A stretch of 64,000 bases of DNA from Anaeromyxobacter sp. (GTDB taxonomy: Bacteria; Myxococcota; Myxococcia; Myxococcales; Anaeromyxobacteraceae), in contig JASGJN010000020.1 in the NCBI GenBank assembly GCA_049840735.1, positions 544,001 through 608,000 of the forward strand, in the 5' to 3' direction. The notes beneath the pieces are model-generated. The model had not been told where the DNA came from and did not search any database. It was given only the letters and a program-made list of their open reading frames with translations. A program made the translations under genes and the position numbers. Numbering within the stretch: position 1 is the stretch's first letter; each line of letters opens with the position of its first letter. Positions 14,850 through 20,667 of the stretch are shown here, piece by piece.

Positions 14850-15768
14850 CGGCGTGATCCGGCCAGCGCGCCAGGAAGGTCTGTCCCTCCTCCAGCACGA
14901 AGGCCTTGAAGGCCGCGGCCGCCGGCGTGAGCGCCTTGCCCGCCCGGTGGACCACGTTCCAGGCGCGCATCACCGGCAGCCCCTCGACCGGCAGGATGGC
15001 GAGCTGCTGCGTCGCCAGCTCCAGCCCGATGGCGTGGAGCGAGATGAAGGCCACGCCCATGCCCGCCATGACCGCCTGCTTGATGGTCTCGTTGGAGGAG
15101 ATCTCCGTCATCCCCGCCGGCCGCACCCCCGCGGCGCGCAGGAGCCGCTCCATGGCCGCCCGGGTGCCCGAGCCGCGCTCGCGCACCAGGAAGGTCTCCG
15201 CGGCCAGCTCACGGAGCGGCGCGCGGCGGCGCCGGGCCAGCGGGTGGTCGGGGTGGGCCACCATCACCAGCGGGTGATCGGCGAAGGGCGTGGCCTCCGT
15301 CTCCACGTCGCGCGGCGCGGTGCCCATCGAGCGTCAGGTCCACCTCGTTGCGCGCCAGCAGCTCCACCACCGCCGCGCGGTTGTGGACCAGCAGCTTGAG
15401 CGCCACCCGGGGTGCCGGTGGCCGAAGCGCGCCAGGAGCTTGGGCGCGAAGTACTTGGCGGTCGAGACCACCGCGATGGTGAGCCGCCCGGAGCGCACCC
15501 CCTGCAGCGCCGCCATGGCGTCCTCCGCGTCGCGCAGCGCCTGCAGCACCCGGTCCACGTGGCGGAGCAGCTCCTCGCCGGCCGGCGTGAGCGCGAGCCG
15601 GCGGCCGGTGCGCTCGAACAGCGGCAGCCCCGCCAGCCCCTCCAGCGCCTTCAGCTGCATCGAAACCGCCGGCTGCGTGAGGTGCAGCTCCTGCGAGGCC
15701 CGGGAGAAGGAGAGGTGGCGGGCGGCGGCGGCGAAGATCTGCAGCTGGCGGAGCGTGGCGTCGCGCAT
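14850..15768 (-). CDS. cbbR: LysR-type regulator CbbR (frameshifts near 15410 and 15330; end approximate)
   Basis: TLRQLQIF...[45 protein letters not shown] and [15 protein letters not shown]. Divergent from cbbL. Confidence 0.9.
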
Positions 15769-15782
15769 GCGGAGCGTACGTA

Positions 15783-15827
15783 TAAGCCGGGCTTAAGCCG
15801 CGGCGCATCACATCTGATTGGCGCTTA
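15783..15827. promoter_or_regulatory. CbbR (LysR) binding boxes, TNA-N7-TNA
   Basis: TAA-gccgggc-TTA at 15783-15795 (palindrome TAAGCC-G-GGCTTA) and TGA-ttggcgc-TTA at 15815-15827, in the cbbR-cbbL intergenic region. Confidence 0.75.
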
Positions 15828-15882
15828 TCGAGCGCCGTCCCTACTCCTAATCCCACACCGGCACACGGAGGCAGGCGGCGGC

Positions 15883-17380
15883 ATGAAGACCATCGAATCG
15901 GCGGACTCGGCGAAGAGAGGGACGCGGACGGGGGCGGAGCGGTACCGCGCGGGGGTCATCCCGTACAAGACCATGGGCTACTGGGAGCCCGACTACGTCC
16001 CGAAGGAGACGGACGTCATCGCCGTCTTCCGGGTCACCCCGCAGGAAGGCGTGGACCCGGAGGAGGCGGCCGCCGCCGTGGCCGGCGAGTCCTCCACCGC
16101 CACCTGGACCGTGGTCTGGACCGACCGGCTCACCGCCTGCGAGCGGTACCGGGCCAAGGCCTACAGGGTGGACCTGGTCCCCGGCACCGGCCCCGGGACC
16201 GACCGCGAGGCCCAGCACTTCGCCTACATCGCCTACGACCTGGCGCTCTTCGAGCCCGGCTCCATCGCCAACCTCTCCGCCTCAATCATCGGGAACGTCT
16301 TCGGGTTCAAGGCCGTGAAGGCGCTGCGCCTCGAGGACATGCGCCTCCCGGTGGCCTACGTGAAGACGTTCCAGGGCCCGCCCACCGGCATCGTGGTGGA
16401 GCGCGAGCGGCTGGACAAGTTCGGCCGCCCGCTGCTCGGCGCCACCGTGAAGCCCAAGCTCGGGCTCTCCGGGAAGAACTACGGCCGCGTGGTTTACGAG
16501 GCACTCCGTGGAGGGCTCGACTTCGTCAAGGACGACGAGAACATCAACTCCCAGCCGTTCATGCACTGGCGCGACCGGTTCCTCTTCGCCACCGAGGGGG
16601 TCAAGAAGTGCCGAGGCCGGGACCGGCGAGGTCAAGGGGCACTACCTGAACGTCACCGCCGCCACCATGGAGGAGATGTACGAGCGGGCCGACTTCGCCC
16701 ATGAGCTTGGTTCACCCATCGTGATGATCGACCTGGTGATCGGCTACACCGCCATCCAGAGCATGGCGCGCTGGGCCCGCCGGAACGACATGATGCTGCA
16801 CCTGCACCGCCGCCGGCCACTCCACCTACACGCGGCAGAAGTCCCACGGCGTGAGCTTCCGGGTCATCTCGAAGTGGATGCGGCTGGCCGGCGTGGACCA
16901 CATCCACGCCGGGACCATCGTGGGCAAGCTGGAGGGCGACCCGGCCGCGGTCTCCGGCTTCTACGACGTGCTGCGCGAGCCGGCGGTGGCCCGCAATCCG
17001 TCGCGCGGGATCTTCTTTGACCAGGACTGGGCCAATCTCCGCGGGGTGATGCCGGTGGCCTCCGGCGGCATCCACGCCGGCCAGATGCACCAGCTGCTGG
17101 CCTACCTGGGCGAGGACGTGGTGCTGCAGTTCGGCGGCGGCACCATCGGCCACCCCATGGGCATCGCCGCCGGCGCCACCGCCAACCGCGTGGCGCTGGA
17201 GGCCATGGTCCTGGCCCGCAACGAGGGGCGCGACCTGTGGAACGAGGGGCCGGAGATCCTCGCCAGGCGGCGCGCAGCTGCCCGCCGCTGCGCGCGGCGC
17301 TGGAGGTCTGGAAGGACGTCACCTTCGACTACGCCTCCACCGACACCGTCGACGTCATCCCCACCCCCACCCTCGCCTGA
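15883..17380 (+). CDS. cbbL: Rubisco large subunit, form I red-type (IC-like); frameshifts near 16608, 16810 and 17265
   Basis: RYRAGV...[102 protein letters not shown], and a C-terminal [13 protein letters not shown]. Confidence 0.97.
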
Positions 17381-18681: not shown

Positions 18682-18686
18682 GACCC

Positions 18687-19745
18687 ATGAGCCCAACCGC
18701 CCCCGGCGCACCCACCCTCACCCGCTTCATCCTCGAGGCGCACCGGCGCGCCCCCGGCGCCAGCGGGGTCTTCAGCGCCCTGCTCACCGACGTGGCCACC
18801 GCCATCAAGGACATCGCCCGCACCGTCTCCCGCGGCGCGCTGGACCGGCCGGCGGGCGGCCGCGGCGCGGCCCTCGACGCCGCCGCCCACGCGCTGCTGG
18901 TCCGCCACTGCGAGTGGGGCGGCCACCTGGGCGGGATGGTCTCGGAGGCGCTGGAGGCGCCCTACGCCATCCCCTCCGCCTATCCCTGCGGCCGCTACCT
19001 GCTGCTCTTCAATCCGCTCGACGGCTCGGCCAGCGCGGACGTGGACGCCGCGGTGGGCACGGTCTTCTCGGTCCTGCGCCGCGAGGCGGGCGCCGGCCCG
19101 GCCGCGGCCGAGGAGTTCCTGCAGCCGGGCCACCGCCAGGTGTGCGCCGGCTACGCCATCTACGGCCCCTCCACCGTGCTGGTGCTCACGCTGGGCGAGG
19201 GCGTGCACGGCTTCACGCTCGACCGCGAGCTGGGCGAGTTCGTGCTCACCCACCCGGACCTGCGCATCCCCGAGCCGGCCCGCGAGGTGACCGTCAACGC
19301 CTCCCACGAGCGGTTCTGGGAGGCGCCGGTGCGGCGCTACGTCGAGGAGTGCCGGGCCGGGCACGCCGGACCGCGCGGCGCCGACGTGGATCTCCGCGGC
19401 GTCTCCTCGCTGGTGGCCGACGTGCACCGGCTGCTGGTCCGCGGCGGCGTCGCGCTCCACCCGCGCGACACCCGCGAGCCGGCCCGCCCCGGCCGGCTGC
19501 GGCTGCTCTGCGAGGCCGCCCCGCTGGCCCTGATCGTCGAGCAGGCCGGCGGCGCGGCCTCGACCGGGCGGGCCCGGCTGCTGGACGTGACCCCGGGCGC
19601 GCTGCACGAGCGCGTCCCGGTGTTCCTGGGCTCCAGGGCCGAGGTGGAGCGGCTGGCCCGCTACCACGACGAGCACGACCGCGGCGTCGACCGCCCCTTC
19701 CGCTCCCCGCTCTTCGGCACCCGCTCGCTCTTCATCGAGCCATGA
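18687..19745 (+). CDS. cbbF: Class 1 fructose-1,6-/sedoheptulose-1,7-bisphosphatase with degenerate active-site motifs
   Basis: TLTRFI, YLLLFNPLDGS, GTVFS, FLQPG..QV.AGYAIYGPST, GVHGFTLD, SLVADVHR.L.RGG, RLRLL.EA.P and C-terminal SPLFGTRSLF. Confidence 0.9.
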   Translation: MSPTAPGAPTLTRFILEAHRRAPGASGVFSALLTDVATAIKDIARTVSRGALDRPAGGRGAALDAAAHALLVRHCEWGGHLGGMVSEALEAPYAIPSAYPCGRYLLLFNPLDGSASADVDAAVGTVFSVLRREAGAGPAAAEEFLQPGHRQVCAGYAIYGPSTVLVLTLGEGVHGFTLDRELGEFVLTHPDLRIPEPAREVTVNASHERFWEAPVRRYVEECRAGHAGPRGADVDLRGVSSLVADVHRLLVRGGVALHPRDTREPARPGRLRLLCEAAPLALIVEQAGGAASTGRARLLDVTPGALHERVPVFLGSRAEVERLARYHDEHDRGVDRPFRSPLFGTRSLFIEP

Positions 19746-19791
19746 GAGTCGCACCCGCGGCGCGCCCGGCGCGCGCCAGGAGGAGGCCACC

Positions 19792-20667
19792 ATGTCGCAG
19801 CGCCACCCCGTCATCGCCGTGACCGGCTCCTCCGGCGCCGGCACCACCTCCGTCACCCGCACCTTCCAGCAGGTCTTCGGTCGGGAGGGGATCAAGGCGC
19901 AGGTGGTGGAGGGCGACGCCTTCCACCGCTACGACCGGGCCGAGATGCAGCGCCGCATGGCCGAGGCGGCCAGCCGCGGCGACCGCCACTTCAGCCACTT
20001 CGGCCCCGAGTCCAACCTGTTCGTGGAGCTGGAGGAGCTCTTCCGCGGCTTCGGCCAGACCGGGCGCGGCCAGGTGCGGCGCTACCTGCACGACCACGCC
20101 GAGGCGGCCCCCTACCACCAGGACCCCGGCACCTTCACGCCCTGGGAGGACATCCCCCCCGGCGTGGACCTGCTCTACTACGAGGGGCTGCACGGGGGCG
20201 TGGTGACCGGCGGCGTGGACGTCGCCCGCCACGTGGATCTGCTGGTGGGGGTGGTGCCCATCATCAACCTGGAGTGGATCCAGAAGCTGCACCGCGACCG
20301 CGCCACGCGCGGCTACAGCACCGAGGCGGTGGTGGACACCATCCTGCGGCGCATGCCGGACTACGTGAACCACGTCGTCCCGCAGTTCGCCCGCACCCAC
20401 ATCAACTTCCAGCGGGTGCCCACCGTCGACACCTCGAACCCCTTCATCGCCCAGGACATCCCCACCGCCGACGAGAGCTTCCTGGTGGTGCGCTTCGCCG
20501 ATCCCAAGGGGATCGACTTCCCCTGGCTCCTCACCATGCTTCACGATTCGTTCATGTCGCGGCGGAACACCATCGTGGTGCCGGGCGGGAAGATGCCGCT
20601 CGCGATGCAGCTCATCATGACGCCCATGATCCTCCAGCTGCTCGATCGCCGCCGCCGGGCGCTGTGA
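19792..20667 (+). CDS. cbbP: Phosphoribulokinase (proteobacterial type)
   Basis: RBS AGGAGG; VIAVTGSSGAGTT, EGDAFHRY, FSHFGPE.N, YEGLHG, NLEWIQK, QRVPTVDTSNPFIA. Confidence 0.97.
   Translation: MSQRHPVIAVTGSSGAGTTSVTRTFQQVFGREGIKAQVVEGDAFHRYDRAEMQRRMAEAASRGDRHFSHFGPESNLFVELEELFRGFGQTGRGQVRRYLHDHAEAAPYHQDPGTFTPWEDIPPGVDLLYYEGLHGGVVTGGVDVARHVDLLVGVVPIINLEWIQKLHRDRATRGYSTEAVVDTILRRMPDYVNHVVPQFARTHINFQRVPTVDTSNPFIAQDIPTADESFLVVRFADPKGIDFPWLLTMLHDSFMSRRNTIVVPGGKMPLAMQLIMTPMILQLLDRRRRAL

Follow-up and report, generated by a model that had tools for sequence, protein, structure and literature searches.

The subject of this analysis is a cluster of Calvin-Benson-Bassham (CBB) cycle genes in a 64-kb stretch of DNA, hereafter the window, from the Anaeromyxobacter genome G000 (C20:544001-608000; gene positions are given in window numbering). 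The G000 assembly comprises 6.67 Mb in 26 contigs and is 94.35% complete with 1.57% contamination; the other genomes compared carry G-numbers, and the loci compared, including metagenome loci, carry L-numbers. Open reading frames and profile searches of the window revealed cbbR divergent from a cbbL-cbbS-cbbX-cbbF-prk block, and the genes, their order and the canonical Rubisco motifs are as an earlier note on this DNA had described them. The features of the locus are as follows.

13031 to 14677, reverse strand: ABC-F ATPase, in the flank outside the cassette, common to cassette-free relatives and used as a control for local assembly error
14832 to 15768, reverse strand: cbbR, LysR-type regulator; NF045990 was the top model for the C-terminal piece and the second for the N-terminal piece
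15769 to 15882: cbbR-cbbL intergenic region, 114 bp, with T-N11-A sites, the first of which is a perfect palindrome (15783-15795)
15883 to 17380, forward strand: cbbL, form IC red-type Rubisco large subunit, by its motifs and extended C-terminal tail
about 17391 to 17779, forward strand: cbbS, Rubisco small subunit (PF00101, 117 bits)
17776 to 18681, forward strand: cbbX, red-type Rubisco activase (TIGR02880), an open frame
18687 to 19745, forward strand: cbbF, class 1 fructose-bisphosphatase-like, an open frame with a degenerate active site
19792 to 20667, forward strand: cbbP/prk, proteobacterial-type phosphoribulokinase (PRK; NF011997), intact
20719 to 20745, forward strand: terminator-like hairpin 3' of prk, weak (2 sites in the region against a chance expectation of 0.8)

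None of cbbY, cbbE, cbbT, cbbZ, cbbG, cbbK and cbbA was found within the block. The cbbR-cbbL intergenic region is a likely candidate for the CbbR operator under the T-N11-A rule, and no sigma-70 consensus was found in it. There were no integration-site marks (RNA family, tRNA or flanking repeat) at the cassette, and no integrase or transposase among the 30 pieces scanned.

When the CbbL frame was read through, with X at its three breaks, the motifs AGESS, GNVFG, KPK, KDDE, HLHR, HIHAG..GKLEG, SGG and FGGG were all present, a set of catalytic motifs that includes the carbamylation motif KDDE and the loop-6 lysine. CbbL grouped with proteobacterial red-type sequences and apart from the green-type, showing 60% identity to the green-type outgroup, whose label comes from its cbbQ/O and csoS2 neighbours; the tree contained no form ID or IE sequence. 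It is a form IC red-type Rubisco large subunit with the small-subunit gene adjacent to its own, and carboxylation is its predicted reaction. The longer C-terminal tail of red-type Rubisco, the mechanism of CbbX and its canonical pore loop, Tyr-Ile-Gly, are described in the available text of PMC5385338. In the G000 CbbX, the Walker A, Walker B and sensor motifs are kept. PRK scored 499 bits against the NF011997 cut-off of 362 and agreed with that of Cupriavidus necator at 19 of 19 checked sites, taken from its catalytic residues; by this comparison it is of the proteobacterial (NADH-activated) type with its catalytic residues intact. CbbF, with 386 bits, lay above its NCBIfam cut-off of 349. 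CbbR grouped with cbbL-linked regulators, and the NF045990 cut-off of 450 bits was missed even by intact relatives (313-328 bits). The G+C content at third codon positions (GC3) of the cassette was 0.97-0.99, the same as that of a host control gene, and its codon scores were host-like. For cbbL, dN/dS against five relatives was 0.18-0.26, from a simple counting approach that gives rough values at such GC3, and for prk it was 0.19-0.40; both ranges indicate purifying selection.

The cassette resembles the form IC operons of facultatively autotrophic proteobacteria, such as those of C. necator H16 (pHG1, cbbLSXYEFPTZGKA), Afipia carboxidovorans (pHCG3) and Steroidobacteraceae L096, in having red-type cbbLS, cbbX, a class 1 fructose-bisphosphatase gene, a proteobacterial PRK and CbbR. 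It differs from them in that its CbbL belongs to a separate clade, the G000 sequence having 80% identity to Afipia, 82% to L052 and 73% to C. necator, in that CbbF is degenerate, and in that the host is a myxobacterium. The earlier note had regarded the arrangement as a reduced Cupriavidus-type operon, a description that is not supported as stated: CbbL identity is 73%, the order, with cbbR divergent from L-S-X-F-P, is identical in L096, and sisterhood with C. necator was neither established nor rejected, having a p value of 0.19 in the approximately unbiased test (p-AU). The Nevskia and Rudaea loci also begin in this order.

In an RpoB tree (40 of 61 family genomes with a match), G000 fell inside its genus (98), beside three cassette-free genomes (89). 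NCBI proteins labelled Anaeromyxobacter sp. or Anaeromyxobacteraceae were identical to PRK or CbbL of G026, of the same genus, and G042, of the same family. Both results identify the host as Anaeromyxobacter, family Anaeromyxobacteraceae, as the earlier note had supposed from the look of the DNA. That note had itself raised the possibility of an assembly chimera. If the block were chimeric, or came in as contamination from a co-occurring proteobacterium, this would agree with the facts that no read or contig was found to bridge the junctions and that the flanks differ in every carrier; but the cassette lies midway along a contig of 925 kb and adjoins a gene with 85% identity to genus relatives, its GC3 and codon scores are those of the host, the cassettes nearest to it come from the same genus and share 78-82% of their DNA sequence with it, and the contamination of the genome is low. 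We consider such an origin highly improbable.

Form I cbbL was found in 16 of the 92 family genomes and in 10 of the 54 that are at least 90% complete. Of the 16, ten belong to the genus (37 genomes), five to a second genus (11 genomes) and one to a third (1 genome). The class as a whole had 18 carriers among 368 genomes, which leaves 2 of 276 outside the family. The 15 carrier relatives all have cbbL and cbbS adjacent, and the divergent cbbR is present in 14 of them, cbbX in 14, cbbF in 12 and prk in 14; the missing cbbR and prk are accounted for by contig ends, while cbbX is cleanly absent in G024.

The 18 CbbL sequences formed one clade within the proteobacterial red-type sequences, with support of 98 among 101 rows and 100/99 among 28 rows, and the 20 CbbR examined also formed one clade (96). 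G000 grouped with G009-G011 in the CbbL, PRK and CbbR trees, so that the block moves as a unit. In the RpoB tree the carriers were scattered, requiring at least 8 changes, 4 of them forced by strong branches, and monophyly of the carriers inside the genus was rejected (p-AU 1.75e-39). The approximately unbiased tests gave p 0.13 for one CbbL clade in genus g1, p 0.17 for g2, and p 0.07 for G029, G032 and G035 on RpoB. By CbbL alone, transfer within the family is not proven and vertical descent is not rejected; the pattern as a whole fits one old gain and frequent later loss, whether or not the block also passed between members of the family. L026 was excluded from the CbbL and PRK trees, the form II G345 from the CbbL tree, and G047, which is garbled by breaks, from the RpoB tests. 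A six-residue N-terminal insert in CbbL was tried as a mark of the family and rejected, being present in 60 of the 101 rows, many of them proteobacterial (20 rows were not parsed).

With regard to the donor, the Steroidobacteraceae CbbL was sister at just 82 in the large tree, the alternative of a Polyangia CbbL (p-AU 0.12) was not rejected, nor was that of C. necator as given above, and in the PRK tree two subclades of the family joined Rudaea, Nevskia and Methylotenera in a polytomy. The trees point to a cassette of proteobacterial form IC type and single out no particular donor lineage. The horizontal gain from Proteobacteria that the earlier note had put forward is supported by this type and by the rarity of the cassette in the class outside the family; it was not a one-off or recent gain of this genome, the cassette being old, adapted in codon use and present in about a sixth of the family genomes. 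A separate acquisition was seen in G345, from another family of the order, where cbbF, prk, tkt and transaldolase accompany a form II Rubisco (L209:6815-13044). In two records labelled Acidobacteriota and Actinomycetes (L067 and L101), the CbbL and PRK sequences fall within those of Bradyrhizobium and Roseiarcus, possibly through misbinning or recent transfer.

Outside the cassette, G000 encodes Pgk, Gap, Tpi, two class II aldolases, Tkt, Rpe, two RpiB, a transaldolase-family protein and GlpX, and no RpiA was found in the genome. The GlpX piece scored below its cut-off because the gene is split. Two phosphofructokinase (PFK) homologues carry the GGDD motif of the pyrophosphate (PPi) type. The CBB gene set of the genome is complete, with sedoheptulose-bisphosphatase activity presumably supplied by GlpX or PFK. 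Nickel-binding (L1/L2) motifs are present in both hydrogenases of G000, a Hyd-2-like HybOABC accompanied by maturation genes and an enzyme of HoxFUYH-like type, and the genome further has PntB, aa3-type and cbb3-type oxidases and NarGH.

Among the genes that the earlier note had proposed to look for, tkt, rpe, rpi and hydrogenase are thus present, while formate dehydrogenase and sox are not in evidence: in G000 the best matches to canonical formate dehydrogenase were nitrate reductases or unassigned molybdoenzymes, and SoxB was found in 4 of the 92 family genomes (L345-L348), none of them a carrier and G000 not among them. Form I CoxL above the cut-off was likewise found in 4 of the 92 (L349-L352), including one carrier (G042), and not in G000, and the type II reaction centre (PF00124) had no match in this 94% complete genome. 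The view of the host as an anaerobe needs correction, as the two oxidases mean that it is not strictly anaerobic; the genus is reported, in the accessible part of PMC2330069, to use H2 and to grow microaerophilically. In G026 (L107:3656-19242), the cassette is flanked by tkt on one side and by a Hyd-1/membrane-bound-hydrogenase-like cluster directly at cbbR, whose small subunit has the extra-cysteine motif; this gene content makes G026 the best candidate in the family for a Knallgas type. As a separate observation, an NrfD/DsrP-like membrane gene lies directly behind cbbR in G032 (L112:11710-12642), G029 (L114:11551-12768) and G035 (L115:7257-8486), and in G065 (L111:2-2199) the genes after the block are an NrfD-ferredoxin-cytochrome set; G000 has a 71% homologue elsewhere (C17).

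We consider it probable that the cassette is a working facultative CBB module, which would probably serve H2-driven mixotrophy or facultative lithoautotrophy. A genuine cassette common to about one in six species of the family implies that some Anaeromyxobacter can probably fix CO2. In Rhodobacter sphaeroides, NADH activates PRK, and its product, ribulose 1,5-bisphosphate (RuBP), activates CbbR, according to the available text of PMC4806589. By analogy, excess reductant in G000 would act through the NADH-activated PRK and RuBP to turn on CbbR and hence cbbLSXFP. An L8S8 red-type Rubisco, kept active by CbbX, would fix CO2; the host Pgk, Gap, Tpi, Fba, Tkt, Rpe and RpiB would regenerate ribulose 5-phosphate, and GlpX, the PPi-type PFK or transaldolase of the host would carry out the bisphosphatase steps in place of the decayed CbbF. 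The electron donor would most likely be H2, used by the Hyd-2-like uptake enzyme and the HoxFUYH-like NAD-linked enzyme, and the acceptor would be O2 or nitrate. The block would have entered the family once, long ago, from Proteobacteria, and would often have been lost since and probably moved between members.

The observations that weigh against this reading concern both the integrity of the cassette and its energetic setting. CbbX reached 443.7 bits against the TIGR02880 cut-off of 459.25, although this was still its best model by far, and its pore loop is F-V-G, with Phe replacing the Tyr of Y-I/V-G; the same position is Trp in G009-G011, G121 and G129. The earlier statement that PRK and CbbX are intact is correct for PRK, while for CbbX it holds for the open frame and not for the score or the pore loop. 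In CbbF a loop is shortened, SEE has become SEA, DPLDGSSN has become NPLDGSAS, and YEAN/YECN has become CEAA; SEE and DPLDGS are metal-binding motifs, and the active site also includes a substrate loop. The active site of CbbF is eroded with the frame kept open not only in G000 (18687-19745) but also in G042 (L110), G024 (L116), G020 (L203) and G345 (L209), and cbbF is cleanly absent in G009-G011. This erosion and absence within the family suggest that host enzymes do the work of CbbF.

The frame breaks belong to the same group of observations. Frameshift-aware alignment against intact relatives placed three single-base breaks in cbbL (about 16612, 16814 and 17266), and two in cbbR (about 15404 and 15325). 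A further break lies in the second codon of cbbS (about 17394), which leaves its start codon out of frame. The earlier note had counted three single-base shifts, which is right for cbbL but too few for the cassette. In addition, cbbR runs beyond the stop that is seen 4-7 residues past the last conserved motif in 4 of 4 relatives examined, and there is probably a seventh break near 14840 that removes this stop. The density in the cassette is thus about 1.1 per kb (six over 5.6 kb), about seven times the genome mean of 0.16 per kb, at which about 0.9 would be expected.

This density, the degenerate CbbF, the altered CbbX and the lack of the cassette in the three RpoB-sister genomes would all be expected if the cassette were decaying in G000, the breaks in cbbL, cbbS and cbbR being real and CO2 fixation lost, as in many cassette-free relatives. 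We regard this scenario as quite unlikely. The neighbouring ABC-F gene, 85-90% identical to its relatives, is broken as densely, with 4 breaks in 1.6 kb, whereas the 2.9 kb of cbbX, cbbF and prk, which include the least constrained gene, cbbF, have none; the alignment showed no in-frame stop in any cassette gene, and the catalytic motifs of cbbL are all kept. Of 141 conserved genes compared between G000 and its complete relative G006, 20 were broken in G000 (24 breaks in 151 kb, and no stop codons), and rpoB, gap, tpi, tkt and glpX of G000 are split as well. A reference-free scan counted 26 breaks in the window and, elsewhere on the contig, 9-18 in each of seven stretches of the same length (64 kb); an eighth stretch, which overlaps the window, had 26, and G006 had 10 in 200 kb. 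The aligner itself reported no break in 5 of 6 control loci and one in G047, which is also a broken assembly. No internal break was found in the cbbL of relatives, and other metagenome-assembled genomes (MAGs) of the family have like splits in rpoB, cbbS and prk. Because ABC-F has four breaks, cbbX-cbbF-prk none and the whole window a raised count, the excess is local and not specific to the cassette. On the strength of these controls (conserved genes, ABC-F and the reference-free scan), the frame breaks are very likely assembly errors. A break count from split tblastn matches (17 in 170 kb) caught just 1 cassette break and was replaced by the frameshift-aware aligner. Several G000 breaks were seen at GAATC/GATTC-like words, as if a methylated motif had caused base-calling errors, an observation made with no comparison to chance.

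As to the energetic setting, group 1 hydrogenase matches were found in 77 of the 92 family genomes but in none of G009-G011, the closest cassette relatives; HoxH-type matches (E<=1e-100) occurred in 8 of 16 carriers versus 20 of 76 others (p 0.08, with kin not independent); a hydrogenase structural cluster lies beside the cassette in just 1 of 16 carriers; and genes for starch use and for fermentation are abundant in the window. A functional cassette could instead act as an electron sink only, on organic substrates (starch, sugars or reduced acids) when acceptors are scarce, and permit no growth on CO2 alone. This explanation, which we hold to be rather unlikely, draws on the fact that across the family the cassette is unlinked to any lithotrophic donor system, on the absence of its own tkt, gap, pgk and rpe from the G000 cassette, on the pullulanase, amylase, pyruvate formate-lyase and glycogen genes around it, and on the response of the PRK/CbbR chain to NADH in R. 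sphaeroides. It is opposed by the two hydrogenases and the O2 and nitrate respiration of G000, and by the presence of tkt, fba or a hydrogenase cluster as extra parts of the block in some relatives, as in autotrophs; moreover, the CBB cycle is generally known to be costly in ATP for a non-phototroph, and no reaction centre was found in G000. A working facultative module, rather than a sink alone, is the reading that we carry forward.

Form I Rubisco and PRK have been described in phototrophic Myxococcota MAGs, with transfer from Proteobacteria given as their origin (Li et al. 2023, PMC10576062; also PMC11821767, each as far as its accessible text goes). These organisms belong to Nannocystaceae, Kuafubacteriaceae, Myxococcaceae and Palsa-1104 and their genes are tied to photosynthesis clusters, in contrast to G000 with no reaction-centre match; the Rubiscos of PMC10576062 were not among our tree sequences. 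A Microflora Danica preprint (bioRxiv 10.64898/2026.07.10.737566) lists families whose CBB cycle is complete or nearly so, Anaeromyxobacteraceae being one of them; of 90 MAGs, 7 have such a cycle and 4 carry type I Rubisco. In the available portion of its main text this is one sentence at the level of pathway modules, in which the family holding the Rubisco is not stated and no operon, phylogeny, frequency or donor analysis is given. Our literature search, which was thin on subscription journals, found no account of the operon, of its frequency or single origin in the family, or of the block of CbbR, PRK and citrate lyase described below, and the accessible parts of 10.1101/2023.09.04.556225, PMC13147460, PMC6315080 and PMC11677957 contained nothing on this operon. 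CBB genes in Myxococcota (2023) and in Anaeromyxobacteraceae (2026 preprint) are already in print, and what we have in G000 is an ordinary form IC cassette in a host group where such a cassette is barely on record. The expectation of the earlier note that a CBB cycle would be surprising in this host group is supported by its rarity elsewhere in the class, but the surprise is lowered by these publications.

PRK was found in 24 of the 363 genomes of the order, 21 of them in the family. Six family genomes have PRK and no Rubisco match; in one of them, G013, this is a cassette cut at cbbX by a contig end. The other five, G019, G020, G022, G066 and G067 (70-98% complete), have CbbR and PRK without any Rubisco match, and RbcS was found in 0 of 5. 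In their loci, cbbR and prk are in line, rpe, cbbF and tkt may or may not accompany them, and the place of cbbL is taken by a hemerythrin gene in divergent orientation.

Rubisco-less loci: L203:3272-13297 (G020), L204:5992-12099 (G066), L205:8184-14343 (G067), L202 and L266 (G019), L206 (G022), L368 and L369

The five CbbR formed a clade (100) nested in the CbbR of the family and spanning two genera, and their PRK kept 19 of the 19 checked sites (18 in G019). In G020, G066 and G067, two ATP-citrate-lyase-like genes follow 167-208 bp after the cbbR-prk set; those of G019 are on another contig, and G022 had no match. The large subunit was found in 5 of the 92 family genomes, all of them PRK carriers, one of which (G024) also has cbbLS, and G000 is without this enzyme. 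One subunit has ATP-grasp and citrate-binding parts, and the other is a CoA-binding subunit with a phospho-His motif and a citrate-synthase-like domain. The large subunit, of 906 aa, is distant from solved chains of ATP citrate lyase and citryl-CoA synthetase, the nearest being the citryl-CoA synthetase small subunit (E 2e-34), and its named homologues are from Geothrix and kin (about 69%). By domains and motifs the two-subunit enzyme is ATP-citrate-lyase-like, and citrate cleavage is predicted. An acetyl-CoA synthetase gene was also seen in some of the Rubisco-less loci. Nineteen metagenome loci carried the lyase gene: two near-identical ones have the hemerythrin gene divergent from cbbR-rpe-prk-aclB-aclA-acs, one lies beside a divergent cbbR and cbbL, and 16 have no prk, several being too short to tell. 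G024 (L116:1-9159, L117) has cbbL-S-F-P-aclB-aclA-acs, no cbbX and a long-branch CbbL, and in L358 aclB-aclA adjoin the divergent cbbR and cbbL.

Both CBB and reverse tricarboxylic acid (TCA) cycle genes, ATP citrate lyase genes included, are known from tubeworm symbionts and Thioflavicoccus (PMC6315080, in its available text). There, Rubisco is kept and aclAB occurs with other reverse TCA genes, whereas in the relatives studied here aclB/aclA-like genes come directly after cbbR-prk, and Rubisco was not found in 4 of the 5 genomes with these genes. As a tentative and decidedly speculative extension, the Anaeromyxobacteraceae may contain a widespread, unrecognised guild of non-phototrophic autotrophs, with one branch in which the control unit would have been rewired: CbbR and a catalytically intact PRK would have outlasted the loss of Rubisco, and RuBP would serve only as an NADH-sensing signal that switches on the ATP-citrate-lyase-like enzyme of a reverse TCA cycle; G024 and L358 would then be intermediates of a pathway swap under the same regulator.

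The window holds several further features. A large secreted-type pullulanase with three CBM26 domains (9296-12943) and an alpha-amylase with fn3 and CBM20 domains (20943-23630) flank ABC-F and the cassette, and their regions had no DNA match in five relatives (E<=1e-20) apart from one weak piece. A long gene in several pieces at 44962-48400 is divergent from pyruvate formate-lyase, with no Pfam match in the two pieces scanned. Methylmalonyl-CoA carboxytransferase genes (transcarboxylase-like 5S, 12S and biotin-carrier), several of them split, lie at 57382-61183, and a 618-aa protein and a small neighbour beside prfC, at 1367-3518, had no Pfam matches.

Anaeromyxobacter is common in paddy soils, wetlands and sediments, and its members are treated as heterotrophs that respire with H2 or acetate. 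If about one sixth of the species of the family do fix CO2, they would add dark carbon fixation coupled to the reduction of nitrate, O2 or metals, and surveys of cbbL would have credited Anaeromyxobacteraceae sequences to Proteobacteria. Most worthy of the attention of specialists are the family-wide pattern of the cassette and its derivative with CbbR, PRK and the lyase; the intact alleles in relatives make function simple to probe, and the Rubisco-less block would offer a natural case both for a role of PRK without Rubisco and for a change of pathway within a carbon-fixation regulon.

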